The notes: generated from the sequence alone by a model not told the origin. Shown: positions 23,974 to 41,080, counted from the stretch's first letter. The stretch is DNA of 64,000 nt from an uncultured Methanosarcinales archaeon (GCA_964556395.1 CAZKVR010000001.1:106996-170995); one strand, 5' to 3'. Numbers and translations are program-made.

Positions 23974-24453
23974 TTATAACGAGAACCCGATAGAGATGTC
24001 TATCGCAGCGCCGTCATAAACTCTTGAATAAAGGTATCCTATGCCTATCTTGAAATCGATGTTTTCTCCGCCCCACCTATATCCTCCTATGAAGTTTACT
24101 GTGCCGCTCACATCATCCACTTCTCCGTTGATCGTCTGGACAGCATTAGTCGTGCTGTAGCCCAATGCTGTATACCATCCGTCTTGAAAATAGTCTTGAA
24201 TCCCATACCAATAGAGTGAGATATCAAAACATCCGTAGGATGCATCAGCTATGGAAGGGGCAAATTTATGCCAACCGAACGCTATGCTAGTGTTATCAAC
24301 AAAATATTCTATACCTACAAAACCTGTCATGTCTGAAAGGCCTGCTCTTAGATAAGTGTTCTCGTTTTGAATGTCACTTTGGGCATTTGCTTCAGTTGTA
24401 GAGACTAAAGCCAAAGCGATGACAACTGTTGAAATGATAATTGTAAGTTTCAT
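23974..24453 (-). CDS. OMP-like beta-barrel protein (signal peptide plus amphipathic beta-strands)
   Basis: The N-terminus is MKLTIIISTVVIALALVSTTEANAQ. Segments GYRWGG and GIGYLYS show the alternating pattern. It is paralogous in style to genes 39980..40453 and 40505..41080. Confidence 0.5.
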   Translation of the reverse strand: MKLTIIISTVVIALALVSTTEANAQSDIQNENTYLRAGLSDMTGFVGIEYFVDNTSIAFGWHKFAPSIADASYGCFDISLYWYGIQDYFQDGWYTALGYSTTNAVQTINGEVDDVSGTVNFIGGYRWGGENIDFKIGIGYLYSRVYDGAAIDISIGFSL

Positions 24454-24949
24454 AAGCCGTTAAATTTTTGGTTGAACAATGGTTTGACCTACCAGGGACG
24501 GTAGTTTGGGTTTTTTGGAATAGTTTTTGAAATGCAATACCTCCTTTCTTATTTTAAGAGTTTTTTGATGAAATAGAAGAGGTGGGCGTAGATAGAAAGA
24601 ACGCCCAACCTCCTGAAAAAGAATCGCTTGAAGTTCATTGAGAATTTGAACCGAATGTGTTGTTCTTTATTAAGAATGAGAGCCTAAAGCGGTTCTAGGA
24701 AGTAATCTACTCTTTCACCGCCGAACAGCGTTCTCTTCCTCCTTACGCTTCCTCGGGAACCTCTTCCTTGTTTTGCGAATTCGGCTGCAGCTGGAGCGAG
24801 GGTGTCTTTAGCAACCTCGTCTTGTGAAGTCCTTTCAAGGACTTTGGCTGCCCGGTCCGCATCTTTTTCGGCGATTGTCGTCTTAACATCCGGTATGATG
24901 ACTGGATTTGTGTTGATGTGGGGAGTGGAAGGACATGTTGTATTAGGTA

Positions 24950-25207
24950 TTAGTCTTCCGTTTTCCCATACATAATGTAACATATTGCTTTTCCTCCTTT
25001 CTTTTTGTTCTGTTTGTCGCTTTTTTCCTCTTTCTCTTCCTGGTTGATTTGGGAAGTCGCTCCAGCGGTGGCGAGAGCGCCGAGAGGAGTTGCGAATAAG
25101 CTCAGACCGCCGGTAAAGGGAGCGGCCACTATGGTCGCTATAGTCCATGCTATGCCATATCCCTTCACATCTCTCCTTTCTTCATTATAATCGCGTGCCA
25201 TTTTCAA
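24950..25207 (-). CDS. Small Gly-zipper membrane protein
   Basis: The hydrophobic stretch is GIAWTIATIVAAPFTGGLSLFATPLGALATAGA. It partly overlaps ORF 24684..25148. Confidence 0.35.
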   Translation of the reverse strand: MKMARDYNEERRDVKGYGIAWTIATIVAAPFTGGLSLFATPLGALATAGATSQINQEEKEEKSDKQNKKKGGKAICYIMYGKTED

Positions 25208-25415
25208 AGCCTCCTTTCTTTTTTGTCAATTTGGTTATTATTAAATTGAAAACTGTATGTAGTGTGAGGAAAATATCTATGAGAGACTTGCGCGGATAGG
25301 AAGAAATGTCCGGCATCATTAGAAAGGATCATTTGAGGACCTCGTTGACTCCTCTCTTTTTCCTCGGCGTCTCTCTCCGTTGCTAATGCCTCAAAGATAT
25401 CCTTCTTGTTGTTCT

Positions 25416-25952
25416 CTAGGCCGACAGTCCCGCTTTCTCCATGAGGTATTCCCACAAGGGTGGTATCGTGATGTCGAATCCGCTTTCCTCATGGAGGTTT
25501 TGCGTGTACTCGCTCGCTTTCTCCAGCATCTCTATCCAGTTGCCGCTCACATTTTCGAATAGCGAGTTACTTCCTTGTACCAGTATGATGGCATGATCGT
25601 CGGAGCAGAGCGCCAGCGTCATGCATTCTGCCTTCTCATCCTTGTCGTCGGGCCAGAATCTTCCTGCGGCGACTTGTGCTGTCGTGATCGGCAGGGTCAC
25701 TGTCAACAATACCTCGTTGCCTATCCAGTCGCGGTAGGTGTCCATCTGGTCATGGATCGGCCAGATGCCTTCTACAGAGCAGGCTTCGATGTCGTCTCCT
25801 TTCTCCATCATGGTTTGTATCTTCTCTTCCATCTCGTTGATGTCAAAAATGCTTCGTAGGACTCCTTCGAAATACTCGTCTATCCATTCTCTCAGGATGA
25901 TTACTTTCTTTGCGTTCTCTTGGTCTTTCGGAGTTTGCTGTAGATTTTTCAT
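25416..25952 (-). CDS. Hypothetical cytoplasmic protein
   Basis: ORF only. Confidence 0.45.
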   Translation of the reverse strand: MKNLQQTPKDQENAKKVIILREWIDEYFEGVLRSIFDINEMEEKIQTMMEKGDDIEACSVEGIWPIHDQMDTYRDWIGNEVLLTVTLPITTAQVAAGRFWPDDKDEKAECMTLALCSDDHAIILVQGSNSLFENVSGNWIEMLEKASEYTQNLHEESGFDITIPPLWEYLMEKAGLSA

Positions 25953-26071
25953 AACTCTATTTTTAGGTGTTTAACAATATTTGATATTTAGTCTGGCGGT
26001 ACGCCCTTTTCTTGTCCGTCCAGGGCGAGGATAGGTGTCTTACACCGTACCGGCCGGTGGTTCGTCGTGGT

Positions 26072-26470
26072 TCAGTCGTTCGTCTTTCGGTATGGGCAGA
26101 TGAGTTCGTCGACGCCTTCGTATGCGTCTTCGTTGACGAGTTCCTCTAGGGATCGTTCGTCCGTGGGTGCTAGGGTCGTCGGGTGTTCGTCCACCATTGG
26201 TGGCCATTCGTGTGCTTGTGAAAACAATGGGTATTCTTCTATCATATCTGGTGATTTTGCTTGTTGCTGTTTTTCCGTCGTGAGAGCTGTTTTTTCGGTG
26301 GTTTTCCGTCGTATCTCTTGTTTTGATAGTGCTCTCGCTAAGAATTCTGGGTGTCCCAGAGCCGTTCTCGAGGGGTTTTTCACCGTTGGTCTCGATCTTT
26401 GTGGCTGTGGGTTTGCGACGCATGTCTTTGGCTTGTTGTCTTCGCGAATCGTGGTTCGTTCTGGCGACAA
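26072..26470 (-). CDS. Hypothetical acidic, disordered protein, possibly third gene of the ATPase operon
   Basis: The ORF lies downstream of gene 26604..28640 on the same strand. A TATATA sequence sits in the gap. Confidence 0.35.
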   Translation of the reverse strand: MSPERTTIREDNKPKTCVANPQPQRSRPTVKNPSRTALGHPEFLARALSKQEIRRKTTEKTALTTEKQQQAKSPDMIEEYPLFSQAHEWPPMVDEHPTTLAPTDERSLEELVNEDAYEGVDELICPYRKTND

Positions 26471-26603
26471 TGCCTGTGGTTGGTGTAGAGTCCCTCGTTA
26501 GGGATTCTTGCGTTTGTGCGGCGTCGCTGTGGTTGTGTGATGTGTTGTTGAGTGTGAGTTCGTCGTGAAAGACGAGGTGATATATAAGGATTGCGATTTG
26601 TAA

Positions 26604-28640
26604 CTACTTATTGGTGGCTAAAACTTTATCCACTTGTGCCGTGTGGTTCACCCGGGCGTACTTGGTCCAACCCTTCTCAGACCGTTCCTCCTCGACGAGG
26701 ATGGCGTCCTTCTCCTCCAGGGACTTCTTCACCTCGTTCCCCTTCCGGGGAGAGAAACCCGCTTCCTTATACAATTGCGATATCGGCATGCCGGGCTTGT
26801 CCTTCGCCGCCTTGAGGAATGCCAGCTCCTCCGCAGAAAGGCTGAGGGGCTTCTCTGCTCGAGCAGCAGCCTTTCTCGCCAGTCTCTTCGCCAGGCCTGA
26901 CCGTTTGATGTACTGGAACGTGTGCATGACATCCGCCCGTTTGAATCCTGCTTGCAGGAACCATTTCCGCAGTTCGTCGAAGCCTTCCCCGTTGAGCATG
27001 CGCTTCTTCGCCTGGTCGAGAATCTTCTGCTGCAAATGATTGCGGATACCATAGCCCGCCGGCCCGTCCTGCACCTTCTTGTGGTGCTCGTCCTGCGCCT
27101 GCTGCGCCGCTTTACGCGCCTCGTCGAATTGCAGGTGTTCTTTCAGCACGGTCCTGTTCGGCTCGGTCCCGCTCTTGATGAACGTGTACTCGAGCTTTGA
27201 GAGTTTCCGCGCCAGTTCTTCTTCTTTCACGCTTTTCTCGAAGACTTCTTTGCGTCTCTTCGTCTTGAGCAGCGCCTTCATCCGCTCTCGCAGATCGTCA
27301 TCGTCGATGGCCTGGCTTTTCAGCCTCATCAAGGGTGCCTTGATGACGAACGGCTCGTGGTGGCGTTCCACCAGTCGCACGAGCGCCTCACCCACTGGCA
27401 ACTTGGTGAAGAACTCTTTCTGGTCGCGTAGTTGCATGAGCCTGCTGATGGCTTCCACGTCCGCCGGGAGCATCTGTTGGAAGGCGATGTTCGTCGCCGA
27501 GTTACCTGACACGACGTCGGACAGCTTGCTGACGTGCTGGTCCAGCGTTATCAATGAGACGCCGTACTCTCGGATCTCTCGGAAGATGACGTCGGATATC
27601 GATTCGGAGATGAAGTTGGGGCGTTCCTTGAGGAAGATGTTGTGCGCCTCGTCCACCAATACCGCGTAGCGGAACTTCTCGGTCGGGTCGATGTTGCCGG
27701 CTTTCGCGTACTTGTAGATGTAGGAGAGCATGAACTGGGTGAAGAACTTCTTCTCAGTGTTGGACAGCGCCGCCAGTTCCATGACGGTCTCTTCGCGGAA
27801 GAGCTCTTCGATGCTGCTCTCCTCAGGCCCCTTGTAGCAGATGGCTTTCCCGAAGTTGCCGAACGTCAAGGCATAGGCGACTCGCAACGCTGATTCGAGC
27901 CATTCCGACTCGCGTGTCTTCCGAGTCTGGGCTTGCGCCTTCTCTTCCAGCCGGTCCCTGATCTGGTACCATGTCGGGTAGTTTTCCGAGCCCGCGTAGA
28001 CTCCGAAGTCCTTGTACGCCTTGTCCAGGGTTTCGACGACTATCTTGTGGACGCCGAACGATCCTGCGAACACTTCTGTGATGATGTCTGCCAGGAGGCT
28101 GACCCATTCCAGTGGTTCGACGCCTTTGGGTGGCTTGTTGATGTTGAGCTTGAAGTTGGCGACCTTGTCGTTGCCGACCGTGTACACCCTGAGCTTGTCG
28201 TTCAGCTTTACGAGTGGCCGGAAGCTTTTCTTCCAGTCGAAGACGAGGAATGGTTTCTTGTTGAAGATGAAGTTCCCTAGGACTTGGAATGCGAAGGTGG
28301 TCTTGCCGGATCCCGACATGCCAGTCACACAAACATGCCGCATCCAGTCCTGTTCTCGCAAACCAAAAGGATAGAGTTCTTTCTTACCGTACATCACCGT
28401 GCCGAGGGGGTACTTGCCTTGGATGACGTCTTTCTTCGGCGGTTCCAGGAGCAGTTGCTCGTTCAACAGACTGTCGGTCAGGTGTTTTTGGTACAGGGCG
28501 TTGATGGCTTGTTCCATCTCGGCTTTGGCGTCCCTGTCCGTGGTGAGGACGTATTTGAGGTAGAGTTGGTCGATTCTCTTGCCGAATATCGGCCTGAGCC
28601 GCCTGCAGATGTCCTCGACGCTGTTCGTCCGGCTGTGCAT
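26604..28640 (-). CDS. HerA/FtsK-superfamily (DUF87-like) P-loop ATPase with a C-terminal winged-helix domain
   Basis: Walker A is GMSGSGKT, Walker B is VLVDEAHNIF, and a sensor ITLDQ is present. A C-terminal HTH-like stretch reads MPISQLYKEAGFSPRKGNEVKKSLEEKDAILVEE. Confidence 0.75.
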   Translation of the reverse strand: MHSRTNSVEDICRRLRPIFGKRIDQLYLKYVLTTDRDAKAEMEQAINALYQKHLTDSLLNEQLLLEPPKKDVIQGKYPLGTVMYGKKELYPFGLREQDWMRHVCVTGMSGSGKTTFAFQVLGNFIFNKKPFLVFDWKKSFRPLVKLNDKLRVYTVGNDKVANFKLNINKPPKGVEPLEWVSLLADIITEVFAGSFGVHKIVVETLDKAYKDFGVYAGSENYPTWYQIRDRLEEKAQAQTRKTRESEWLESALRVAYALTFGNFGKAICYKGPEESSIEELFREETVMELAALSNTEKKFFTQFMLSYIYKYAKAGNIDPTEKFRYAVLVDEAHNIFLKERPNFISESISDVIFREIREYGVSLITLDQHVSKLSDVVSGNSATNIAFQQMLPADVEAISRLMQLRDQKEFFTKLPVGEALVRLVERHHEPFVIKAPLMRLKSQAIDDDDLRERMKALLKTKRRKEVFEKSVKEEELARKLSKLEYTFIKSGTEPNRTVLKEHLQFDEARKAAQQAQDEHHKKVQDGPAGYGIRNHLQQKILDQAKKRMLNGEGFDELRKWFLQAGFKRADVMHTFQYIKRSGLAKRLARKAAARAEKPLSLSAEELAFLKAAKDKPGMPISQLYKEAGFSPRKGNEVKKSLEEKDAILVEEERSEKGWTKYARVNHTAQVDKVLATNK

Positions 28641-28642
28641 TC

Positions 28643-29131
28643 TTATGCCTCCGGGCCGTTGAGGAGGCCGTCGATCATGCTGGCGTTGTTCTCTTGTTCT
28701 CGGAACTCGTGCATCCGGTCCCTGAGCTCTTTCTTGAGGTCTGCGATGTCTCGGAACGCGTTGATCTTCTCGTTGAGCTTGAATGATTCTATGTCGAGCA
28801 TCTTCTCCTTGAGCTCGGCCCGTTTGACCTCGTCGATCTTATCGCCTGCCGCTGCGAGGAAGTTGTTCATGTTCATCATGATCTGTTCGACATCCTTGAA
28901 CACGTCTTTCTGGAGGTCCTTGCGCTCGTCGATGAGGCTTTCGATGTCGTCGATGACCTCTTTCGTGTTCATGATCTTGGCGCCTTGGATGTCTTTCAGG
29001 ACGGAGTCCATGGACGTGTCAGTGTAGTTCTCCTTGACGTCGTCTACAGTGGGCATGAGCTTGTAGTCCTTAGAGGGTTCCTCGTTGCGCAGGAAGCCGT
29101 CCAGGAGTTCGTTGTCGAGCGTGTCAGCCAT
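28643..29131 (-). CDS. Acidic coiled-coil protein, co-transcribed with the ATPase (2-nt gap)
   Basis: Heptad-rich helical sequence. It sits immediately upstream of gene 26604..28640. Confidence 0.6.
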   Translation of the reverse strand: MADTLDNELLDGFLRNEEPSKDYKLMPTVDDVKENYTDTSMDSVLKDIQGAKIMNTKEVIDDIESLIDERKDLQKDVFKDVEQIMMNMNNFLAAAGDKIDEVKRAELKEKMLDIESFKLNEKINAFRDIADLKKELRDRMHEFREQENNASMIDGLLNGPEA

Positions 29132-29246
29132 TGTCGTGCCTCTTTTTTACTGTTTGGAGTCGGGAAAACCCTGAAAAACCGAGGGAAACGGTTTCTTTCT
29201 TACCGAGTGATAGAGAAGGTCCTATATAAAACTTTCCTTTTTTGTT

Positions 29247-30308
29247 TCACTTAGTAGTGACGAAATCTACGCAGAACCTGTAGATGTGCGGCGCTTGCTG
29301 GCCGCACCGCACCGTCTCGCGGATGTCGCAGCCGACGCCGGCGGCCTCGCACGCCTCGCGGATCCAAGAATATGCGCTATCGACCTTGTCCTCGTGGAGA
29401 AAGGCGTAGAAATGTATCGTCGCCGTGTCGTTCGCAGCCTTCAAAGCCACGTCGAGGAAGGTCTCTGCCCCTTTGGGCAGGGGCATGAGGATGCGGTCGA
29501 AGCCGCCTTTCTCCGAGACCAGCGTCGGCACGACCTCTCGGGCGTCCCCGACGTGCGTCGTGGCGTTGGAGAGCTTGTTCCGCTGGATGTTCTTGAGGGC
29601 GAGCTCGTGGCCACGCGGGTTGATCTCCACCCCGACGACCTCCGACGCATCGGTGTTCTTGCCCAGGACGCAAGTGTAGGGTCCGCAGCCCGAGAACATG
29701 ACGAGCACCCGCTCGTCCGGCTTCACGAGTCCCATGATGCGTTTCCGCTCGGTCGACAGCCTCACGGAGAAGTAGACATCCTCGACATCGACCTCGAGCG
29801 TGACGCCGTTCTCCTTGTGGAGCGTCACCCGCTTGTCCTCGCCCGCCAGCAACCGCATCTTCTGCGTCCGGTACGTACCCTCATGACTGGCGTCCTTGGC
29901 CAGCGCCGTGGACACGCGAGGGTTGGTCTCGAGCAGAGTCGCACCTATAACCTTGTCGTATTGTTTCAGGTCCTCATCGACTTCCAGGATGGCGATGTCG
30001 CCCACCTGGTCGTACGCCGTCTTGAGCCTTTCCAGGACGTCCGAGGGCAGCTTGCCTTGCAGGGCTTCGCGGAGGCTCTTGGGCCGTTCCTGCTGTCCCG
30101 GCAGGTCGCGCTCCTCGAACTCATAGGACGTGTCGAACCGTTCCTTGACCGGCAGGTAGAGGTGGCCGTCCTCCTTGACCGCCTTGTAGCCCGGCAGGAA
30201 GAGCCCTCGTTCTACGAGGTCTTTCCGGGCCTGTTCTGCGTCCTTCAAAGGCACCTTGAGCGCGAGCATGGGCGTCGTGAGCCAACGGGCGTTTTTAAGG
30301 TTATCCAT
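29247..30308 (-). CDS. trm5: tRNA (guanine37-N1)-methyltransferase Trm5
   Basis: VYFSVRLSTERKRI, MFSGCGPYT and LMPLPKGAETFLDVAL align with M. jannaschii Trm5. The start is placed at MDNLKN. Confidence 0.9.
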   Translation of the reverse strand: MDNLKNARWLTTPMLALKVPLKDAEQARKDLVERGLFLPGYKAVKEDGHLYLPVKERFDTSYEFEERDLPGQQERPKSLREALQGKLPSDVLERLKTAYDQVGDIAILEVDEDLKQYDKVIGATLLETNPRVSTALAKDASHEGTYRTQKMRLLAGEDKRVTLHKENGVTLEVDVEDVYFSVRLSTERKRIMGLVKPDERVLVMFSGCGPYTCVLGKNTDASEVVGVEINPRGHELALKNIQRNKLSNATTHVGDAREVVPTLVSEKGGFDRILMPLPKGAETFLDVALKAANDTATIHFYAFLHEDKVDSAYSWIREACEAAGVGCDIRETVRCGQQAPHIYRFCVDFVTTK

Positions 30309-30349
30309 AATTAGTTTCAATAAAGAAAAGAAAAGAGTCTGAAAAATCA

Positions 30350-30368
30350 GAGAACGCCTGCTGCTCGA
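30350..30368. repeat. 19-bp direct repeat copy 1 (GAGAACGCCTGCTGCTCGA)
   Basis: It is identical to copy 2 at 31960..31978. Both lie about 45 nt upstream of minus-strand ATGs. Confidence 0.8.
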
Positions 30369-30500
30369 ACACACGAAAGCATAACGGGCTCTCCGGAAAA
30401 ACTAGTGGACCCGTTGACACAAGGCATATATTCATCCGGACATATCTCCAAATAAGGAAAGGAACACAACAGTTATATACCTGCTATAACTACCTATAAG

Positions 30501-30737
30501 GTGATGAAGACTACAATCCAGCTCGACAAGCAGACCATCAGTCGCCTGCAGGAGCACAAGCTCTATCCGAGGGAGCCATACGACGCCATCGTCAACCGGC
30601 TCATTGACGAAGCAGAGGATGACGAAGAACTCACCCCTGATGAGATCAAGGATATCGAGGTTGCCCTGGAGCAGGTGAAGCAGGGTAAGACTATCAGAAT
30701 CGAGGACCTCGCGAAGGAGTTGGGTGTGAAGCTCTGA
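30501..30737 (+). CDS. RHH-type antitoxin (type II TA)
   Basis: An N-terminal beta-strand TTIQLDKQT is present. The stop overlaps the start of the RelE gene. Confidence 0.7.
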   Translation: MMKTTIQLDKQTISRLQEHKLYPREPYDAIVNRLIDEAEDDEELTPDEIKDIEVALEQVKQGKTIRIEDLAKELGVKL

Positions 30738-30988
30738 TGTACGCTCTCGAATTCTCGGATGAGGCCGCGAAGACTATCAGGAAACTACCCAGGAACGAGC
30801 GCGACCGCATCCTCAAGAAGATACAGAGCATCCGCGACTACCCCTTCGCGCATCTCAAGAAGCTGGAAGGCAATACGTTCTGGCGCCTCCATATCGGCAA
30901 GTACCGCGCCATCGTGGATGTCATCGTGTCCGGCAGGCGCATCATCGTCCTCAGGATCGGGAAGCGTGGCGATGTCTACGACCGCTGA
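30737..30988 (+). CDS. relE: RelE/ParE-family toxin
   Basis: The protein is about 83 aa and contains ...FWRLHIGKYRAIVDVI...RIGKRGDVY. Confidence 0.8.
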   Translation: MYALEFSDEAAKTIRKLPRNERDRILKKIQSIRDYPFAHLKKLEGNTFWRLHIGKYRAIVDVIVSGRRIIVLRIGKRGDVYDR

Positions 30989-31017
30989 GAACCCAACCTA
31001 CAAGAGCAGCAGCTCTT

Positions 31018-31917: not shown

Positions 31918-31959
31918 TTATAAACGTTACTGTCACTCCAGATAATGACAGGATGCCGC

Positions 31960-31978
31960 GAGAACGCCTGCTGCTCGA
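31960..31978. repeat. 19-bp direct repeat copy 2. Includes the palindrome CTGCTCGAGCAG
   Basis: See copy 1. Confidence 0.8.
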
Positions 31979-31991
31979 GCAGAAGCCCTTT

Positions 31992-33023: not shown

Positions 33024-33149
33024 GGCGGTGGTGAGAATATGGTTCTTCTTAAGGGTTTGGATGGTGGTTCTCTAGAAAACCAGTTGAATATTAAAAAAAC
33101 CAATTGGTTTCCAAAAAGTTTATATAGTTTCGAACGAAACCAAAAGAAT

Positions 33150-33722
33150 ATGGAAGGAGTCAATAAGGAAAGCTATGAAGAAGAGGACGCTTATACGAAG
33201 GTGTTGTACTGGTTCTTCGCCCACCCCACCATTGAAGTCAGCCTCAACGACCTCGTCGAGGCGGTGAACATCTCCAAGACCTCGGCGAACAAGGCCGTGC
33301 ACAGGCTCGTGGATGAAGGATTCCTTCGCCTCAAGCAGCTGGGACGGCTGTGGCGCATCACTTGTAACCAAGAGCACGAGTACAACATCACCAGGAAAGT
33401 CCCGTTCAACCTCCAGACAGTCTACCAGGCAGGCATCCTCGAAGAGATTCGCAAGCGCATCCCGAACCCCCGCGCAGTCGTGCTCTTCGGCAGTTATCGC
33501 AAGGGCGACGACACGGAGGAGAGCGACATCGACATCGCAGTGGAAGTGATGGATGACAAGGATTACAGGATAGTGGAATTAGGGGTCCTCACGACCTTAG
33601 GTTTCCGCGAGCACGTGCCCGTCAACCTGCACGTATTCTCACGCAACCATGTGGACCTCAACCTGTTCGCCAACATCGCCAACGGCATCGTCCTTGAAGG
33701 GTTCCTGGAGGTGCGACCATGA
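33150..33722 (+). CDS. MNT-type nucleotidyltransferase with N-terminal wHTH (antitoxin of a HEPN/MNT pair)
   Basis: The GS...DxD motif reads VVLFGSYRKGDDTEESDIDIAV. A TATA box TTTATATAG lies 24 nt upstream of the ATG. Confidence 0.75.
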   Translation: MEGVNKESYEEEDAYTKVLYWFFAHPTIEVSLNDLVEAVNISKTSANKAVHRLVDEGFLRLKQLGRLWRITCNQEHEYNITRKVPFNLQTVYQAGILEEIRKRIPNPRAVVLFGSYRKGDDTEESDIDIAVEVMDDKDYRIVELGVLTTLGFREHVPVNLHVFSRNHVDLNLFANIANGIVLEGFLEVRP

Positions 33723-34105
33723 GGAGGAAACGTCCCGATATCAAGAACGCCGACAGCCTGCTGGAGGCCAGCAAGAACACCCTGAGGTTCACCATGAAGC
33801 TGGAGGTGTCGGAGGAGTCGGCCGACACTATCATCAGGAACGTGCACGAGGCGTTCCGGATGCTCGGCGAGGCATTGCTTCTCAAGCAAGGAGGGGTCGC
33901 CGTCGATCACACCCAGCCGATCGAGGCCCTCATCCGCACGAACGTCCAAACAGAGAGGCCCTTGTCGGTGTTGACGACCATCAGGAAGACGAGGCATTCC
34001 ATCAATTACTACGGCTACCGGCCGACGGTGGCGGAAGCGCGGGATGCGGTGTCTGTGGCCGAGGCTTGTTTCGACAAGCTGGCAGAACATGTCAAGAGCC
34101 TATAG
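33719..34105 (+). CDS. HEPN-domain protein (putative toxin partner)
   Basis: The protein is all-alpha and about 128 aa. It contains an RKTRHSINY Rx(n)H-like motif and overlaps MNT by 4 nt. Confidence 0.55.
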   Translation: MRRKRPDIKNADSLLEASKNTLRFTMKLEVSEESADTIIRNVHEAFRMLGEALLLKQGGVAVDHTQPIEALIRTNVQTERPLSVLTTIRKTRHSINYYGYRPTVAEARDAVSVAEACFDKLAEHVKSL

Positions 34106-35148
34106 CTGTACCAACAATAATCCTTTGAATTCGTGGTTGAGCTTCTCCTTCGCTTTCTTCGTCACGTCGCCTGTCGTGAGGTAGATGACCGGTAGCTTCT
34201 TCATCTGTCCTTGGACGTACGCGTTGGAGAGGTCGCCGTCGTTGCTCTTCTTCTTGTTCTTCGCCTTGCAGAAATAGGTGACGCGACCGACGGCTGTCGG
34301 TACTGAGATCTCGAATTCGATGTCCGAGTTCTTGCGCTGGACCTCTTTGGCGATGACCTGGATTCGCTTCTCGGCGAAGTATTCCAGGACTTGTTTGAGG
34401 AAGTCGTCGCCGGTGTCGTCCTGTTGCTTGAGGAGTGTCTTTGCGGGCACCGCTTCGGGCGTTCCGGAGGGTTCTTCCGACCCACTCTCTTCTTGCATCT
34501 CAGGCTCTGCTGCTTTTGTATGCTCGTGTTTCACGGCTTCTGACTGTTCTTGCGTTGCTGGTTTCGGGGCTTGTCTCGTGGATTTTTGTGGCGCTTGCTC
34601 AGGAGATTGCCGGGCGTCTTGCGAGGGTTCTGTCGGTGACGCTTCCTTGGACTGTTCTTCCTGGATTGGTGCTGGTTGTTCTGCTGGCTTGGTCTGCTTG
34701 GGCGTGATGCCTAATGCCTGTTTGATGAGCGGCTCCGCCTCTTTCGTCTGGAGCTGGTACCATTTCCAGAACAGGACGGTGCCGTCTTTCGTCTTGACTT
34801 CCAGTGGTACGGCGAAGTCTTTGACCTGTCGGAGGCTGACCCTGGCGAGGGGTTCTTGCTCGTCGTCTTTGAGTATCTGTTTCTGCTTGAGGAGTTCTGC
34901 CGTCCGCCTGTCCTTCTCGCCGAGGTATTGTATGAGTTTGGTCAGCTTGTCGGCGTGTTCCGGGATGTAGTAGAAAGGCCCTCCGCGTTTGGTGTTGCTC
35001 ACCTTGACCTTCCCTGCGCCTTTGAGCTCTGACAGGACGGCGCCGATGGTGAACGAGTCGCCTTCGCCGAGGGCTTTCCTGATGTGGAGGGGTTGGCACG
35101 GGCCTTTCTGTCGGAGGACTTGCAGGACGGCGTCTCTGTTGAGCATGT
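34100..35148 (-). CDS. wHTH + PD-(D/E)xK nuclease-like protein with a low-complexity linker
   Basis: The start is placed at MLNRDAVLQVLRQKG. The C-terminus has a SDIEFEISV...CKAK restriction-endonuclease-like motif. Confidence 0.5.
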
Positions 35149-35201
35149 TTTCTTCGAGGTGTCGGTGATTTATAATCCTGTTGCTTGCCACATAGATAAT
35201 T

Positions 35202-35222
35202 TCTATAGTGAAAATAATCTGT
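35202..35222 (-). promoter_or_regulatory. Conserved promoter-like motif, copy C (TCTATAGTGAAAATAATCTGT on the plus strand)
   Basis: It lies about 55 nt upstream of minus-strand gene 34100..35148, in the divergent region shared with the sigma-factor gene. Confidence 0.45.
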
Positions 35223-35263
35223 AAAACAAAAATAGTCTTATAGTACACTACTATCGCGTCAAT

Positions 35264-35851
35264 ATGGCAGGAGACAGGCTCATCCACGAGGAATTCATAC
35301 AGGCCAAGACAGACCCCCTCATGAGAGAGGCAGTGATGGGCAAGGTGTGGACGAAAGCATACCACATCGCGTCGAGATACACCCGCTCATCAGCAGAGGC
35401 GGAGGACATCGCCCAGGAAGCCTCGTTGAATGTCCACAAGAACTTCCACGTCTACGGCAGCAAGAGGCAGAACAACCCATACGCATGGGTGCACACCATC
35501 ACCACGAACATCTGCGTAAATCACTACCGGAGGCGGCCGAAAACCCCCATCATAAGCCTCGACGAGGAGGAAAGGGCAGAGGGCCATACCAGGATGAAGA
35601 GGGATGTCCCGGACGAGCGCAACAACATCGAGGACTACCTCAACCTCAAGGAGTGCGAGGAGGTGTTGGCCAGCCTGCCTGAAAAGAAAGGGAAGGCCTA
35701 CCTGTTGTCCTATCTCGAAGGATACAAGTACGACGAGATCGCAGCGATCACCAAGGAGCGGATGGGCACCGTGAAAAGCAGCATCCATAGGATGAGAGAA
35801 CGGGCGAAAGAGCTGTTCCAGGAACGCGCTCCCGTCTACATCAGGAAGTGA
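35264..35851 (+). CDS. ECF-type RNA polymerase sigma-70 factor (regions 2 and 4)
   Basis: Region 2 reads AEDIAQEASLNVHKNF...YAWVHTITTNICVNHYRRRP. Region 4 reads LPEKKGKAYLLSYLEGYKYDEIAAITKERMGTVKSSIHRMRERAKEL. Confidence 0.8.
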   Translation: MAGDRLIHEEFIQAKTDPLMREAVMGKVWTKAYHIASRYTRSSAEAEDIAQEASLNVHKNFHVYGSKRQNNPYAWVHTITTNICVNHYRRRPKTPIISLDEEERAEGHTRMKRDVPDERNNIEDYLNLKECEEVLASLPEKKGKAYLLSYLEGYKYDEIAAITKERMGTVKSSIHRMRERAKELFQERAPVYIRK

Positions 35852-35856
35852 ACCAC

Positions 35857-36564
35857 ATGCAGGCAGTCATCATCAGCGGAGGGTTGGGGACGCGGTTGAA
35901 GCCCCTGACAGATACCATTCCGAAAGGCCTCGTCGAAGTGCAGGGGCGGCCGTTGTTGGAGCACGTCCTCGACCTGCTCAAGGAAGCCGGTGTGGACGAC
36001 GTCATCATTTCCATCGGCTATCTCGGCGATAGGATAAAAGAGCATTTCCAGGACGGGAACAGCCATGGCGTCCGCATCAGGTACGTGGAGGAGGATAAGC
36101 CCCTAGGGACGGGTGGCTGGCTCCACAAAGCAAGAGGGATGCTGTCAGGCGATTTCCTCGTCGTCAACGGCGACAACCTCTTCGCCTTGGACCTCCACGA
36201 GATGCTGCGGTTCCACCGGGAGCGGGGAGCGACGGCGACGATAGGCCTCACCAGGGTGAGCGACCCGTCGTCGTTCGGCATCGCTGCGATGGACGGCGAC
36301 CGTATCGCGAGGTTCGTGGAGAAGCCTTCGCGAGAAGACGCTCCTTCTGACTTGGCGAACGGCGGCTACTACGTCTTCAACGAATCGGTTTTCGGCATGA
36401 TACCGTCGCGAGAGCGTTTCATGCTCGAGCAGGACGTCTTCCCAGCACTTGCGGGAAAAGGTAGGTTGTTCGGCTTCCCCTCAGGTGCGCAGTGGTTCGA
36501 CACCGGCACGTTCGAACGCCTCCAAGAAGTGGAATCCTTCTGGCGGAAAGGCAGCAACGTTTAA
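35857..36564 (+). CDS. Sugar-phosphate nucleotidyltransferase
   Basis: The N-terminus is MQAVIISGGLGTRLKPLT. A GTGGW motif is present. Confidence 0.8.
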   Translation: MQAVIISGGLGTRLKPLTDTIPKGLVEVQGRPLLEHVLDLLKEAGVDDVIISIGYLGDRIKEHFQDGNSHGVRIRYVEEDKPLGTGGWLHKARGMLSGDFLVVNGDNLFALDLHEMLRFHRERGATATIGLTRVSDPSSFGIAAMDGDRIARFVEKPSREDAPSDLANGGYYVFNESVFGMIPSRERFMLEQDVFPALAGKGRLFGFPSGAQWFDTGTFERLQEVESFWRKGSNV

Positions 36565-36594
36565 AAAGGGAAGGGTGTTGGGTTTCCTCAAGCC

Positions 36595-37275
36595 ATGATA
36601 CAGCAACGACACGTTGACGAGTGCAAGCGACAGCTCATAAGGGCGGGCTGGGCGTGTGACATCGACAACACCGTCTCCGCCACGGCTGAAGCGTTCTTCG
36701 ACCGCATGGATGGGCTGTTCCCCCGCCCTGAAGGGGATGAGGGCCTCTCCGTGAGTGAGCTCGTGCGGAAATATGTGAGCGATGACCAAGTACCGACTTG
36801 GCAGACACCTGAGGCCCGTGCCGCCAGCAAGGCTATCATCTCAGACCCCGAGTTCTATCGGGAACTGCCTCCCATAGCGGGTTCTGATACGGTCTTGAGG
36901 AGGTTCACGGAAGCCTTGCCTTTCACGTGTTTCATCACCGCCCGTCCTAATGTGGTGGCTGATGAGACGAGGGCTTGGCTGGAGAGCCGCTTCCCCACCC
37001 TGCCGCTCATCACCAAGCCTGACAGCGTGGATCCTTCTCGGAACAATGAGTGGAAGGCTCGGCTGCTGGAAGCGTTGTATCCGCAGGTGCGAGGTATCGT
37101 CGACGACGATCCGCGCCTGGTAGAGCATCTCTCGCCTGGTTATGGGGGGACGGTCATCATCTTCGGCGCGTCAAGTGTGGAGCACGATCACGTCGAGGCT
37201 TATGCTTGCTTGACGTGGAAGGATGTGGAGAGGAAGCTGGAGGAGCTGGCGAGTCTCAAGGCCGCATCCATTTGA
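36595..37275 (+). CDS. HAD-superfamily hydrolase
   Basis: A DxDxT motif (CDIDNTV) and a downstream DDD motif are present. Confidence 0.55.
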   Translation: MIQQRHVDECKRQLIRAGWACDIDNTVSATAEAFFDRMDGLFPRPEGDEGLSVSELVRKYVSDDQVPTWQTPEARAASKAIISDPEFYRELPPIAGSDTVLRRFTEALPFTCFITARPNVVADETRAWLESRFPTLPLITKPDSVDPSRNNEWKARLLEALYPQVRGIVDDDPRLVEHLSPGYGGTVIIFGASSVEHDHVEAYACLTWKDVERKLEELASLKAASI

Positions 37276-37909
37276 TCTCCCAGTACGACACGTCGCCTTC
37301 GTCGTCGACGACGCCGATGAGCAGCCTTTTCTTCGTCGAGTGGGCCACGCGGTTCTTGGCTGCGAACTCGTACCATGTCAGCGTCGAGCCTTCGTGGACG
37401 GGGTAGACAACCCATCTTGCGTGGTCTTCGCCTGGCTTGACGCCGCGGTCGTACACGCGGAAGTCGGCTCCGAACTTCAGGGCTGTCTTGACGATGTAGC
37501 CTCTGTTCCTGAGGTCTTTGAAGACGGAGTAGCGTATCCAGAACTGCGGTTCGATGCGTTTGGCCTTGCGGAGGAATTGCTGGAAGTCGAGGGTCTTGCC
37601 GTGGTAGTCTTTCACGTGGAGGCGTCCTTTCTCGAGGAGGTAGAGGGCTTCGTGGAGGCTGAGCTGGACCTTGCCGTCTTCCAGCATGACGCCGTAGCGG
37701 CTCTGCGCGTAGAGGTCTCGCGCCGCGTCGGTGTTCTCGGTGATGACTCGTTCCTTGGCGAAGATGGCGTTGACCTTGACCTTCTTGCGGCCGTTGCTCA
37801 CGGCTTTGGGGATGATGCCTTTGAAGTCTTCCTCGTGGTTGAGCGGGTCTTCGAAGGTGAACTCGTCCTCGTGGAGGTGGATGCCGCTCTCGTCCTTCTT
37901 CTTGGCCAT
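37256..37909 (-). CDS. endA: tRNA-splicing endonuclease
   Basis: The protein carries GADFRVY, HARWVV and AHSTKKRLLIGVVDD. Confidence 0.85.
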   Translation of the reverse strand: MAKKKDESGIHLHEDEFTFEDPLNHEEDFKGIIPKAVSNGRKKVKVNAIFAKERVITENTDAARDLYAQSRYGVMLEDGKVQLSLHEALYLLEKGRLHVKDYHGKTLDFQQFLRKAKRIEPQFWIRYSVFKDLRNRGYIVKTALKFGADFRVYDRGVKPGEDHARWVVYPVHEGSTLTWYEFAAKNRVAHSTKKRLLIGVVDDEGDVSYWEIKWMRP

Positions 37910-37958
37910 GGCTGTGGAGAGGAGAGGGTGCTTTATAAATATTTGGCAGAATATATTA

Positions 37959-37980
37959 CTATATAGAAAATAATTTGTGT
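37959..37980 (-). promoter_or_regulatory. Conserved promoter-like motif, copy B (CTATATAGAAAATAATTTGTGT on the plus strand)
   Basis: It lies about 45 nt upstream of the endA ATG. It matches copy A at 21 of 22 positions. Confidence 0.5.
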
Positions 37981-38009
37981 AAAAAAAAGGCTGCGGAGAT
38001 GCAGCCTTT
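37981..38009 (-). terminator. Hairpin AAGGCTGC-GGAGAT-GCAGCCTT plus T-run (minus), 3' of gene 38022..38912
   Basis: An 8-bp stem is followed by 8 T on the minus strand. Confidence 0.6.
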
Positions 38010-38021
38010 GATTTGCAGAGT

Positions 38022-38912
38022 TCAACGATCCACAGGCACGAACTCGAATTCTATCTCATCAGTATCATTGAAGCCGAGCTCGGAAAAAAAGAACAATGCA
38101 TGATGATTATCATCAAGCGGTCTTTGGAAGATGACACGGAAACCCCTGCCATCCTCATCGACATCTCCAGTACATCTGAGCTTGCACTCTTCGTATGAGT
38201 ATTCAGGAGAACGTGAGTATCTGCTCCTATACCTATCATATTTGATATCATAGATGCGATTGAAATGCCAACCTATCAGACCGCCTCGGTGTTTCATCGT
38301 TGCAGGGTGGATTTCGGCTTGTTTGACAAAATAAATCTTCTCGCCATACGTGTACCTCGAAAGGTACTTGCGATATATCTTATCGAATGAATCCTTCCAC
38401 CCATCCGAAATTGTGTTCCGTTTCCTGATGGTCCAAGCGAAGACTCCGGACCCGTCAACAGGATCGACATCAGCGTACGCTATGATACAGGTTTGTTCCA
38501 TATAGTTATCGCGGCGGAACAGAGAGGACTTCTCTTCCTCCTTATAGACACCAACATAATATCCGCGTGGACGCGGAAATACGGGTTCGAACGAAGAGGT
38601 AGAGAACTCGAAATAGTTTACTCCTTCCTCGACATGGATCGTGTGCTCTTCTATAGAGCCGTCACCTGACTTGATAGCGAGCGTGTGCTTGCCAGTATCG
38701 ACATCTCTGATAGGGAGCCTGCCATACACCTTCTTGACATTGAATGATGAGTCGATCACATCGTATTCGTTAGATGTGAATCCCTTAAATTCCCCATCGA
38801 GGTAGACCCCACAGCCAGGATCGCCTGAAACACCTAGCGTTTGCGCGACCCCTTCGATGCTGAGCATCGCGAGAAGGAGTCCGAATGAACTGATAAGAAA
38901 TGATGTTTTCAT
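38022..38912 (-). CDS. Secreted PEGA-like domain protein (paralog 1)
   Basis: The start is at MKTSFLISSFGLLLAMLSIEGVAQ. A CxPGxxVYLD...G.H.L pattern is shared with gene 38993..39766. Confidence 0.55.
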   Translation of the reverse strand: MKTSFLISSFGLLLAMLSIEGVAQTLGVSGDPGCGVYLDGEFKGFTSNEYDVIDSSFNVKKVYGRLPIRDVDTGKHTLAIKSGDGSIEEHTIHVEEGVNYFEFSTSSFEPVFPRPRGYYVGVYKEEEKSSLFRRDNYMEQTCIIAYADVDPVDGSGVFAWTIRKRNTISDGWKDSFDKIYRKYLSRYTYGEKIYFVKQAEIHPATMKHRGGLIGWHFNRIYDIKYDRYRSRYSRSPEYSYEECKLRCTGDVDEDGRGFRVIFQRPLDDNHHALFFFSELGFNDTDEIEFEFVPVDR

Positions 38913-38992
38913 AATTATTATTTTTGTGAGTTTATTACAATTAGTTTTATTTGATGTTCTGGACGTCAAGACGCCTTTTCTCAGCGAGAGAT

Positions 38993-39766
38993 TCAATAGG
39001 GTGAAGAAGGCATCGGCACGAACTCGAAAGTCAGCTCCTTATTGTCGAATATCTTATCATACCCTTTCGTGGAGCGCAGGCGAAGGGTGAAACCCTCGCC
39101 ATCCTCTTTTATCCGGCCATTCCCGATCAGGATAGGCTTGCTACCGCTATGCTGGCTGGCAGATAATATCATACGGACACTCACATCGCCAGAAGAAGCC
39201 ACTTTCATCTCCCCTGAGAAGAGGGTCGTATAACGCTTCTGACGCAAGTCCTCGATGTCATAGACATCGAGAAAGAAACCGTAGAACATGTCCTTGAAGG
39301 TGTAGGAGTTCCTGCTTTCATCCCCATACCTCGAAAAAGGCGCCCACGTGAATTCGATGTTTTTAGTGGTCGTGTCGTCCTCACCCATATAGAGCATGAG
39401 GTGATGGTGTATCGTGGTTGATTTGAACAACGATTTCTTCTCCTCTACATTGTAGGAAGCGACATAGTAACCGTCCTTGCGAGGGAAACCAGCACTCTTA
39501 TCGATGTTGACCACAAGTTCGTTCACGCCTTCATGGATGTCGAGAGAGTAGCGTTTCACGAATCCCGTGCTTTTCTTCACCGTGAGTTCATGAGCCCCTA
39601 GGGCTACATCGTCGATGAACAGACCGTCCTGCGCGTCGCTCGTGACGCCTTTGAGCGTGTCATCGAGGTAGACCCTGTAGCCCGGCTCGCAGATGACAAA
39701 AAGTTGTTGTGATACTCCTTCGCTCCAGAGAGCGAAGAGCATGATAATAAAGATTAGATGTTTCAT
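38993..39766 (-). CDS. Secreted PEGA-like domain protein (paralog 2)
   Basis: The N-terminus is MKHLIFIIMLFALWSEGVSQ. It is arranged in tandem with paralog 1. Confidence 0.55.
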   Translation of the reverse strand: MKHLIFIIMLFALWSEGVSQQLFVICEPGYRVYLDDTLKGVTSDAQDGLFIDDVALGAHELTVKKSTGFVKRYSLDIHEGVNELVVNIDKSAGFPRKDGYYVASYNVEEKKSLFKSTTIHHHLMLYMGEDDTTTKNIEFTWAPFSRYGDESRNSYTFKDMFYGFFLDVYDIEDLRQKRYTTLFSGEMKVASSGDVSVRMILSASQHSGSKPILIGNGRIKEDGEGFTLRLRSTKGYDKIFDNKELTFEFVPMPSSPY

Positions 39767-39979
39767 GAATCATAAGATTTGAAGTTTGACAAATGTTTTG
39801 AAAGATACGCCGTAGGTTCCGACTGCTCCGAGAACCACCCCCCATCATTGAGCCAACCCGAAGGTGGTGTCGAAGGATGGTATCACGACACCTCCACCAT
39901 AGTGATGGCGCCGTGATTGCTTTCATAAGCATTGTTTGTTTCATAAGCTAACGAGCGATACAATAATTGTTTATAACTA

Positions 39980-40453
39980 TCAGTAGGAGATGACCCCCCA
40001 TCCGAGACTGACCTCGAACGCAGGGACTATTTCAGGCGCCCCGAAAGCGACACCACCTCCAAACCTGAAGTCGAAGTTTTCTCCTAAGATAAAACGGTAG
40101 CCGGTGACGACGGCGATAACATCATAATACGTGTCAGACGCGTCCTCAGTCACCATGACGTAGTTCGTTAAATTAGAGGCAAATAAGAAGTAGCCTGACT
40201 GAAACGGATCGGGTTCGAAGAAAAAATTGACACCTACTCCGGTTACAACATCACCATTCGGTTTCCGTCCTCCATATCCTAATGAATAGCTCAAAGAGTA
40301 ATTGTTTGAGACGTCAAGGAAGTGTTCGAGGCCAAAGACACCTGTGATAGTAGAGGCTCCTCCCCGGAAATACCAGATATCTTGAGATTGCGCTGGTCGC
40401 GCCATCAGCAACGTGATGGCCGTGATTGCGATGATAAGGATTGTTTTTTTCAT
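39980..40453 (-). CDS. OMP-like beta-barrel protein
   Basis: A signal peptide is present. TGYRFILGENFDFRFGGGVAFG-type amphipathic strands run to an aromatic C-terminus (ISY). Confidence 0.55.
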   Translation of the reverse strand: MKKTILIIAITAITLLMARPAQSQDIWYFRGGASTITGVFGLEHFLDVSNNYSLSYSLGYGGRKPNGDVVTGVGVNFFFEPDPFQSGYFLFASNLTNYVMVTEDASDTYYDVIAVVTGYRFILGENFDFRFGGGVAFGAPEIVPAFEVSLGWGVISY

Positions 40454-40504
40454 GATGTAAAGGTTTTTGAGTTATACAATGTGTTCTCGTGAATTGATGT
40501 AGGG

Positions 40505-41080
40505 TTATTTCAGCCACGGCTTCCACAGCGCGAACCCTGCTCTGATTTCGAGGTAGAGTCCGCTTGCGATGTAGCTGTGCCTGTAGCCGGCTCCCGCTTT
40601 TATGAAGTAGTGGTCTCCTGCGAACCTGTAGCCGAGCGTTGCCGTGATGGCTGGAGTCCAGCCTTCGGTCTCGCCGTCGTGCGTCCGTTTGTAGGTGCCT
40701 TGTTCTGCGTTCGTCAGGAATCCCGCGCTGAGGTATGAGCCGTCGTTCAGGATTGCGCCGTTGATCGCGAGGTCGAATCCGAAGGACCATCGGTCTTCGA
40801 GAGGTCCTGGTTTCCCGAGCCTGACGTCGAGGGCTACCCGGTCGTAGTTGAATGATACTCCTCCGTAGGGGATGGTGTACCAGTCGAGGCCTCCCATGAG
40901 GTATATCTGGGTTTCGGCTCTCGTTTCCGGCAGTCCATGGTTGTAGTATCGCGGACGGTGCACTTTCTTAGGGGTGTAGTTCCGTCCGAACTTGCTCTTC
41001 TCGTCCTCTTGTGAGGATGCTTGCTGTGCTCCTGCGATGAGCAGGAGTGATGCGATCGCTGTGATGAGTGTGCTTTTCAT
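40505..41080 (-). CDS. OMP-like beta-barrel protein
   Basis: A signal peptide is present. Segments TATLGYRFAGDHYFIKAGAGYRHSY and LYLEIRAGFALW show the same pattern. Confidence 0.55.
   Translation of the reverse strand: MKSTLITAIASLLLIAGAQQASSQEDEKSKFGRNYTPKKVHRPRYYNHGLPETRAETQIYLMGGLDWYTIPYGGVSFNYDRVALDVRLGKPGPLEDRWSFGFDLAINGAILNDGSYLSAGFLTNAEQGTYKRTHDGETEGWTPAITATLGYRFAGDHYFIKAGAGYRHSYIASGLYLEIRAGFALWKPWLK

Follow-up and report, generated by a model that had tools for sequence, protein, structure and literature searches.

Known small-barrel systems and the archaeal locus

Transmembrane beta-barrels of the outer membrane protein (OMP) type are commonly taken to mark diderm bacteria and the organelles derived from them, and the Omp85/BAM machinery is believed to be needed for their assembly. 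Here, we describe three paralogous genes, hereafter barrels A (positions 23974 to 24453), B (39980 to 40453), and C (40505 to 41080), all on the minus strand of a 64-kb stretch of DNA (GCA_964556395.1, CAZKVR010000001.1:106996-170995, labeled uncultured Methanosarcinales archaeon). This whole stretch is called the window, and coordinates are counted from its first letter; L-numbers denote related contigs, and P-numbers denote related proteins. The three products belong to the outer membrane beta-barrel superfamily, and it is fairly probable that their genes came by horizontal transfer from the gene pools of phages or bacteria and settled in islands of a Woesearchaeota-like chromosome, where at least B and C would have been kept for function. 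The fold, the superfamily, and the existence of phage-encoded outer membrane barrels were already known. The subfamily with its barrel-lipoprotein module, the three copies in an archaeal chromosome, and the evidence that copies are conserved there are new.

Several described systems resemble the locus in part. First, as in the Pfam family OMP_b-brl (PF13505), the N-terminal barrels of OprF and OmpA, NspA, OmpX/Ail, and OmpW, the products combine a signal peptide with a domain of about 135 residues, for which eight long antiparallel strands are predicted. Unlike the small barrels of Gram-negative bacteria, they are encoded in an archaeal chromosome, A and C do not end in an aromatic residue, and all three fall below the Pfam thresholds. 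Second, phages carry outer membrane barrels of their own, such as the moron protein Lom of phage lambda. Lom-type morons and the phage proteins in BFVD have the same fold, relatives of A lie in phage-like auxiliary-gene regions, and phage-encoded outer membrane barrels are the likely donor pool; unlike them, A, B, and C sit in an archaeon, and their family found no match in 50,697 phage genomes or in IMG/VR. Third, phase-variable loci of Bacteroides thetaiotaomicron pair an outer membrane or S-layer lipoprotein with an OmpA-like eight-stranded barrel and have been linked to phage susceptibility (bioRxiv 10.1101/521070), and one of these barrels, BT1926, is an eight-stranded closed barrel (PMC12228718). 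The A locus is likewise a two-gene surface module of lipoprotein and small barrel, as in BT1927-BT1926 and the seven paralogous loci, and its partner lipoproteins carry Bacteroidota-style lipoboxes with acidic residues behind the cysteine. Unlike in BT1927-BT1926, the barrel comes first, the lipoprotein has about 115 to 150 amino acids (aa) rather than being a large S-layer protein, and no recombinase or invertible promoter was seen; the two are compared by organization, not by sequence. Finally, according to PMC8204110, bacterial-type families, GroEL among them, occur in Woesearchaeota and other DPANN archaea on genuine archaeal contigs, as checked by flanking archaeal genes, and sigma-70 factors and murein (lytic) transglycosylases are prevalent in Woesearchaeota. 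The window resembles these cases in having bacterial-origin envelope and regulatory genes on an archaeal contig, including an extracytoplasmic function (ECF) sigma-70 gene; unlike the genes reported there, OMP-type barrels go unmentioned in the available part of PMC8204110. Literature searches turned up no earlier description of such barrels in Woesearchaeota, and the sole archaeal mention was a possible distant relative of PopA in the diderm Altiarchaeales (PMC12228718).

Three paralogous genes and their predicted fold

Barrel A encodes a 159-aa precursor, predicted to consist of a signal peptide and an eight-stranded OMP-type beta-barrel; B encodes a paralogous precursor of 157 aa; and C encodes one of 191 aa with an N-terminal extension behind the signal peptide. 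This extension of about 40 aa is basic and proline rich (SKFGR..T...VHRP.Y.N.GLPE) and is kept in the C-type proteins P0014 and P0042. In BLASTP comparisons, A matched B (E = 5e-9) and C (E = 5e-8), and B matched C (E = 0.014). A hidden Markov model (HMM) of the family, run over all six-frame open reading frames (ORFs) of the window, retrieved exactly A, B, and C, with E values from 1e-35 (B) to 2.5e-49. All three ORFs and their signal peptides are intact; the N termini are hydrophobic and lead to predicted signal peptidase I sites (ANA|Q in A, AQS|Q in B, and ASS|Q in C), and signal peptides are present in nearly all of the 55 relatives examined. The initial annotation, made from the sequence alone, had proposed three paralogous ORFs with signal peptides and repeated strand motifs at these positions, and BLASTP, the family HMM, and the sequences themselves agree with it: GYRF and RFGGGVAFG occur in B, AGYRHSY occurs in C, and A has GGYRWG. 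Its further claim of aromatic C termini holds for B, which ends in tyrosine (GVISY), and fails for A (GFSL) and C (GFALWKPWLK); across the family, the last residue is F, W, or Y in 20 of 55 members. When 1.84 billion cluster representatives were searched exhaustively with hmmsearch, 80 clusters were retrieved (E ≤ 1e-3, 113 to 267 aa). Since three members of so rare a family fall inside 17 kb of the window, the pattern is not due to chance.

The AlphaFold2 model of A (mean pLDDT 75.7, pTM 0.67; built on a 6-sequence alignment) shows a signal helix at residues 3 to 19 followed by eight long strands in an up-and-down meander. In a Foldseek search of the PDB, the best structural match of this model was the N-terminal barrel of OprF (E = 4e-4, target-normalized TM score 0.65), followed by NspA, Ail, OmpW, OmpX, OprH, the transmembrane domain of OmpA, and PagL. 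All of the 15 best matches were membrane beta-barrels, and neither a lipocalin nor a beta-sandwich appeared among the top matches. In BFVD, the best matches of the same model were phage proteins named "outer membrane protein beta-barrel," encoded by Cellulophaga, Salinibacter, and Synechococcus phages and by uncultured Caudovirales. The outer membrane barrel fold that had been proposed is thus supported. The more specific label "OmpA/OmpW-like" finds no counterpart at the sequence level, where A, B, and C matched none of OmpA_membrane (PF01389), OmpW (PF03922), and Ail/Lom (PF06316) at E ≤ 1.

Sequence evidence for the superfamily comes from the relatives. Eight of the 55 matched PF13505 at E ≤ 0.01 (best E = 2.6e-6), and the B orthologue P0094 carries a precomputed PF13505 annotation that is graded weak. 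The profile searches that the initial annotation had suggested were therefore positive for OMP_b-brl in these relatives and negative for the three proteins themselves. The outcome under which it would have abandoned the barrel, a beta-sandwich fold together with no OMP profile match, is not what was found. A further feature is the C terminus of the phage homologues of A, which ends in GFSF, GVTF, or GFAF. The last strand, for example AIDLSVGFSF, closes with phenylalanine, and positions 3, 5, 7, and 9, counted back from the C terminus, are hydrophobic; this is the classical OMP pattern. When the family profile was aligned with hhalign to an Escherichia coli OmpX sequence, the signal peptide alone aligned. 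A, B, and C thus belong to the outer membrane beta-barrel superfamily through their relatives and their fold and not through a profile match of their own, and the family is a small subfamily of this bacterial superfamily that was not described before.

Phage-context relatives and the barrel-lipoprotein module

Barrel A is 55 to 70% identical to the phage-context homologues P0002 to P0004, and all relatives of A that could be traced are located on contigs of phage-type gene content with a GC content of 25 to 35%. These contigs carry numerous small co-directional ORFs, and the phage-type neighbors fall into several groups: nucleic acid genes (T4 RNA ligase 1, RNase H-like, T4 DenV [Pyr_excise], Dda/PIF1 helicase, and N6/N4 methylase), mobile elements (GIY-YIG and HNH homing endonucleases and an intein), metabolic genes (a bacterial-type S-adenosylmethionine [SAM] synthetase, MetK, with SAM lyase, and dihydrofolate reductase), and wall or protein genes (glucosaminidase, M23 peptidase, and peptide deformylase). 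The nearest matches of the helicase, about 33% identical, come from crAss-like phages of Bacteroides. The phage type that encodes P0004 is present in the archaeon's own sequencing runs (SRR11308339). With degenerate patterns, no A-type or C-type relative was found in IMG/VR, JGI metagenomes, or 185,579 GTDB species representatives, and P0004 was unmatched by tblastn in 50,697 INPHARED phage records. The contig that carries P0003, L003 (GCA_048626855.1), is labeled "bacterium" and is probably a fragment of a large phage that was mis-binned; at positions 1 to 2754, it also encodes a portion of a protein that exceeds 2,700 aa.

Directly downstream of A lies the gene of a partner lipoprotein (23549 to 23890, minus strand; 113 aa from its ATG, in agreement with the Logan gene call, the mechanical ORF starting at a TTG at 23917). 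Its lipobox, AIS|C, fits the loose pattern only and is followed by acidic EQEEDCE, and Pfam gave just weak Ig-like/DUF4397 hints. The predicted protein shares 36 to 57% identity with the product of the gene that immediately follows the barrel in L008, L011, L013, L014, L015, L016, and L019. In the window and these seven contigs, the order is an A-type barrel and then a lipoprotein of about 115 to 150 aa with the pattern CEK...NNTS...NDERW...CEE; L004 and L005 have the barrel without a lipoprotein partner. Because a homologous lipoprotein gene stands directly downstream in all seven contigs, the pair is, as judged from gene order and sequence, a conserved two-gene module. The lipoboxes of the phage copies are canonical and are likewise followed by acidic residues (SSC-EETD and TSC-ETED). 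Acidic residues in this position resemble the surface-export signal of Bacteroidota lipoproteins.

The two genes of the module are wired differently in the archaeon and in the phages. A repeat (23853 to 23953 versus 24416 to 24515, 81 to 92% identity) comprises a leader of about 60 nt and the first signal-peptide codons; one leader copy lies upstream of the lipoprotein gene (23891 to 23953, minus strand), and its near duplicate lies upstream of A (24454 to 24515, minus strand). A short inverted repeat, CTACC...GGTAG, lies within the leader. In the phage modules, the leader is missing and the genes are separated by a spacer of 20 to 40 nt, whereas in the archaeon they have moved apart. This suggests that an expression signal was duplicated after transfer, since the phage versions have no such leader.

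Conservation and selection of the C-B tandem

Barrels C and B recur together elsewhere. Contig L012, from another sample (GC content, 54.5%), matches window positions 39980 to 42952 at 81.7% nucleotide identity in the order acetyltransferase, coiled-coil gene, C, and B; its C orthologue P0014 is 81% identical at the protein level, and its B orthologue P0094 is 65 to 67% identical. Contig L017 (GC content, 52%) has a C-type gene, P0042, 39 to 41% identical to C, followed by two B-type genes (C-B-B′). The two B-type barrels stand in tandem at L017 positions 766 to 1761 and have nearly identical signal peptides (MKRLFLIIAV[LF]AISTMVAKSQ), which indicates a local duplication in that genome. The C-B synteny is therefore kept in three contigs from three samples (L001, L012, and L017). 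Between the window and L012, a single genome pair, the ratio of nonsynonymous to synonymous substitution (dN/dS, Nei-Gojobori) was 0.25 for C and 0.28 for B, compared to 0.10 for the flanking coiled-coil gene and 0.25 for the acetyltransferase gene. These ratios, together with the synteny, point to maintenance of B and C by purifying selection in this archaeal lineage. In a neighbor-joining tree, which carries no support values, each of the three genes sits in a different clade, and A is nested among phage-context sequences. The three separate clades imply at least two acquisitions.

Archaeal linkage and two islands of atypical composition

The initial annotation took the genome to be archaeal, and the genes of the window agree: it contains FEN1/XPG, a tRNA-intron endonuclease, Trm5/TYW2, NAC, and an MBF1-type helix-turn-helix protein, and its FEN1 clusters at 90% identity or more with a protein annotated Candidatus Woesearchaeota. 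The host is a Woesearchaeota-like DPANN archaeon. A, B, C, and the other genes of interest are recorded on a single NCBI contig of 277,225 nt, and assemblies made independently (Logan) contain the same joins. The 9.9-kb contig L020, assembled from the same run, joins the Trm5 C terminus, a gene for a 162-aa protein, a HerA-like ATPase gene, A, the lipoprotein gene, and more island genes. Another contig, L001, joins the acetyltransferase and coiled-coil genes to C and B and to the gene behind them.

The barrel genes lie in two islands that differ from the host in composition. The GC content at third codon positions (GC3) of host genes ranges from 0.64 to 0.90 and mostly exceeds 0.75, compared to 0.40 for A (the minimum of the window), 0.53 for B, and 0.69 for C. 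Island 1 (1810 to 26600, about 24 kb, GC3 of 0.40 to 0.72) has all of its genes on the minus strand and contains A, the partner lipoprotein, other lipobox and signal-peptide proteins, a 564-aa secreted protein, and a full-length ThyA-type thymidylate synthase (8010 to 8804, minus strand; Pfam E = 3e-127). Apart from ThyA, no Pfam or PHROG family was found in it. Island 2 (38010 to 41100, about 3 kb, GC3 of 0.50 to 0.69) contains B, C, and two secreted proteins, and it is flanked by a tRNA-splicing endonuclease gene (37256 to 37909) and by the host-like coiled-coil and acetyltransferase genes (flank GC3 of 0.77 to 0.85). Signal peptides of the AQ, SQ, or GQ type and all of the lipoboxes in the window are restricted to these two islands. 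Lipoproteins were predicted from sequence, a lipobox being [LVI][ASTVI][GAS]C behind the h-region of a signal peptide. The lipoboxes that had been noted among the neighbors were found in three genes, all in the island of A: the partner lipoprotein (ORF 23549 to 23917) and two genes with the strict pattern, VTG|C (19858 to 20478, minus strand) and IIG|C (22474 to 22893, minus strand).

About 24 ORFs of island 1 (11.3 to 26 kb) gave no tblastn match among the 50,697 INPHARED phage records, and island 1 as a recognizable prophage was therefore rejected. No tRNA (ARAGORN) or Rfam noncoding RNA that might serve as an integration site was found in the window. The two islands have a terminator-like element in common at their 3′ edges (1748 to 1810 and 37952 to 38012, both minus strand; counterpart at L012 3962 to 4014), made up of a hairpin, a T-run, and an AT-rich stretch. 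On the minus strand, this element of about 60 nt reads as a GC hairpin and a T-run and then AACACAAWTTATTTTCTATATAGT; it is 94% identical in L012 compared to 82% for the remaining L012 sequence, and weaker versions lie between island 1 genes (2425 to 2469 and 3098 to 3128). It is terminator-like and could also be a promoter or the remnant of an insertion site. A palindromic TATA-like decamer, TTCTATATAG, was found 8 times with at most one mismatch in the window compared to 1.5 times expected, and the copies at 1756, 29222, 37959, and 41393 mark both edges of both atypical regions. TTCTATATAG as an att-like island border was rejected: only the copies at 1760 and 37963 share the hairpin, the T-run, and about 30 nt, and those at 29222 and 41393 have just the TATA-like core in common with the others. 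The decamer probably represents the core of a promoter and not an att site, and a metagenome scan for the long form of the element found none.

Probable horizontal acquisition and alternative explanations

The account that we consider fairly probable is that A, B, and C are genuine OMP-superfamily barrels, that horizontal transfer from the gene pools of phages or bacteria placed them in islands of a Woesearchaeota chromosome, and that at least B and C were kept for function. Direct support comes from the fold and the family, from the phage-like surroundings of the relatives, from the composition of the islands and their physical linkage to archaeal genes, and from the synteny and the dN/dS ratios. 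The foreign islands, the phage-context relatives, and the three clades argue for horizontal acquisition and against a native outer membrane proteome; horizontal transfer into DPANN genomes is commonplace. In outline, the three genes would encode small, closed eight-stranded barrels made as Sec precursors, which entered a Woesearchaeota-like DPANN chromosome by at least two transfers. Barrel A and the surface-type lipoprotein encoded downstream of it would have come in jointly, as the two-gene module that is also carried by very low-GC, tailed-phage-like genomes, and these phages were probably those of Bacteroidota-like diderm bacteria. This transfer would have been recent because the composition of A is the least ameliorated. 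The C-B tandem would be an older cassette, now syntenic in related genomes and under purifying selection.

Several points weigh against this account. First, the structural evidence has gaps: A, B, and C found no match to PF13505 even at E ≤ 1 and stayed below every Pfam, NCBIfam, and PHROG threshold; the 55-sequence family profile retrieved nothing significant and no solved OMP from the PDB sequences by hmmsearch, the best real hints being de novo transmembrane barrels and PorV at E > 0.07; and the alignment behind the A model is shallow at six sequences. Closure of the A barrel would follow from the fold matches and not from coordinates, and B and C are predicted to be barrels by homology to A, the only one of the three modeled. 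Second, the donor side is thin, since the barrel is absent from deposited phages, IMG/VR, and the GTDB representatives, and since the hosts of the phage-like contigs are taken to be bacterial because peptidoglycan hydrolases and a deformylase are encoded there. Island 1 itself has no integrase or phage structural gene recognizable in Pfam/PHROG scans. Third, L017 has no taxonomic assignment, and the selection estimate and the tree are bounded by the one genome pair and by the missing support values. Finally, the function and membrane localization proposed for the three proteins in the archaeon are inferred; archaea are not known to possess BAM machinery, and the assembly of an OMP barrel in their ether lipids is conjectural.

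A different account, which we consider rather unlikely, is that the islands are integrated and possibly defective archaeal viruses or mobile elements and that the barrels and lipoproteins serve the element, in superinfection exclusion or in modification of the virion or host surface. Both islands are atypical in composition, the relatives are phage borne, and the terminator-like element is common to both 3′ edges. Island 1 is co-directional and full of Pfam orphans, with ThyA in addition, and ThyA is a common viral auxiliary gene. At its right edge stands a gene for a 678-aa HerA/DUF87-type ATPase (26604 to 28640, minus strand) whose P-loop gave a weak PHROG match to "terminase large subunit." However, this gene is host-like in codon usage (GC3 of 0.78), no integrase, capsid, portal, or att-type direct repeat was found in the window scans, and island 1 is similar to no deposited phage. 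Island 2 is just 3 kb long, syntenic at 82% nucleotide identity, and under apparent purifying selection, and a fixed chromosomal cassette fits it better. If the genes were mere cargo, they would still delineate a new and very rare phage module of barrel and lipoprotein.

It is improbable that the genes are neutral or decaying debris of transferred phage or bacterial DNA, idle in the archaeon. Such a fate might be expected where neither BAM nor an outer membrane is expected, and some erosion is visible near A: its terminal phenylalanine is gone (GFSF in the phage homologues, GFSL in A), its partner lipoprotein lost a C-terminal tail, and the 24.5- to 26.6-kb region beside it is poor in coding potential. 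For B and C, this explanation is contradicted by dN/dS ratios of 0.25 to 0.28, near that of one flanking host gene, and by the C-B synteny in three contigs from three samples. All three ORFs and signal peptides remain intact, and A and its partner have each gained a copy of one leader, a sign that their expression may have been re-wired.

The remaining explanations carry little weight. The initial annotation had offered a choice between a diderm archaeon and secreted beta-sandwich proteins converging on the OMP pattern, a dichotomy that misses horizontal acquisition in view of the foreign islands, the phage-context relatives, and the three clades. Soluble secreted proteins, either eight-stranded lipocalin-like barrels or beta-sandwiches that mimic the pattern, would account for the lack of significant OMP profile matches to A, B, and C, and amphipathic strands alone cannot separate a soluble from a membrane barrel; with 15 of 15 structural matches to membrane barrels, relatives that match PF13505, and a classical last strand in the phage homologues, this is highly improbable. 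A diderm archaeon with native outer membrane proteins, as true OMP-type barrels with signal peptides and nearby lipobox proteins might suggest, is equally hard to credit. A few archaeal lineages do have two membranes, but the genes here are restricted to islands of foreign composition and fall into three unrelated clades with phage-context relatives, the family was not found by pattern in the 185,579 GTDB species representatives, and no Omp85/BamA-like gene was present among the scanned ORFs of the window. Least probable of all is a chimera of assembly or binning, to which the foreign composition and the phage contigs with A-type homologues in the same run (SRR11308339) might point: both islands are flanked on either side by archaeal or host-composition genes, A is only 55 to 70% identical to the phage copies and intermediate in GC content, and the joins found by an independent assembler (Trm5-HerA-A in L020; B-C-coiled-coil-acetyltransferase in L001) and in a different sample (C-B synteny at 82% in L012) make such an error very unlikely.

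Possible role in the archaeon and significance

If the barrels were horizontally acquired and kept, the precursors may be exported by Sec and their signal peptides cleaved in the archaeon, and the mature barrels of about 135 aa could then embed in a membrane without BAM. Small eight-stranded barrels such as the OmpA transmembrane domain and OmpX can insert without BAM in vitro. Once there, the barrels might act as surface anchors or partners of the co-resident secreted proteins and lipoproteins and so remodel the cell surface, possibly in virus exclusion or in contact with bacterial neighbors. In such a role, they would parallel phage moron OMPs such as lambda Lom and the Bacteroides loci of lipoprotein and OmpA-like barrel that change phage susceptibility. 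A more specific proposal, on which we would place little confidence, is that the woesearchaeon uses bacterial-type outer membrane barrels and surface lipoproteins, taken over from phages of diderm bacteria, as working parts of a cell-cell interface. The secreted barrels would either insert into or dock on the outer membrane of bacteria that serve as hosts or live nearby, or reside in an unrecognized outer envelope layer of the archaeon and assemble there without BAM. Bacterial partners have been raised as a possibility for Woesearchaeota (PMC8204110; also PMC10936187). The insertion or docking version, if true, would document a DPANN-bacterium symbiosis directly at the molecular level.

The locus would thus provide a set of OMP-type barrels that is well linked to an archaeal chromosome, is maintained by selection, and can be traced to a phage-like source, and a concrete case of virus-mediated gene flow from bacterium to archaeon that involves envelope proteins. 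It would also offer a tractable test of BAM-free folding of small barrels into archaeal membranes and a molecular handle on whether some Woesearchaeota live attached to bacteria, a question raised in PMC8204110. This may surprise specialists in envelopes and OMPs, and it makes DPANN-bacterium contact testable.

Other features of the window

The 564-aa secreted protein of island 1 (9642 to 11336, minus strand) had been singled out for a beta-rich tail like that of the barrels. Its FTLSFTL end is present, and residues 370 to 526 gave a sub-threshold match to PF13505 (E = 0.0057, 17.3 bits, cutoff 28.7), so that a C-terminal OMP-like beta-domain is possible; the protein was unmatched by the A/B/C family HMM, its C terminus did not align to that family by hhalign, and a single-sequence AlphaFold model (pLDDT 39) was too low in confidence for use. 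In island 2, a 257-aa secreted protein with a signal peptide (38993 to 39766, minus strand; GC3 of 0.64) is homologous to a 305-aa lipobox protein behind B in L012, and a second secreted paralogue has about 296 aa from its ATG (38022 to 38912, minus strand; GC3 of 0.50; mechanical ORF from a TTG at 38996). A "PEGA-like" label for these two proteins was dropped because Pfam gave it no support.

Outside the coding regions, the approximately 2 kb beside A (24500 to 26600) holds only short, overlapping, low-confidence ORFs on both strands and may be degraded or noncoding. The 370-nt intergenic region between the upstream side of C and the divergent coiled-coil gene (41081 to 41450) is unusually long and A/C rich, with neither an ORF nor an Rfam match. 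Adjoining the HerA-like gene is a gene for an acidic coiled-coil protein of 162 aa (28643 to 29131, minus strand), also host-like in codon usage, and an identical gene stands beside a Trm5-like fragment in another sample (L021). The ECF-type sigma-70 gene (35264 to 35851, plus strand; Sigma70_r2 and r4_2, NCBIfam sigma70-ECF at 69 bits) stands among archaeal core genes with a host-like GC3 of 0.80, and no anti-sigma gene is evident nearby. Between the islands, a small RelE/ParE-like toxin ORF (30737 to 30988, plus strand) and a nucleotidyltransferase/HEPN-like gene pair (33039 to 34105, plus strand) were identified by eye and read as typical archaeal toxin-antitoxin modules.

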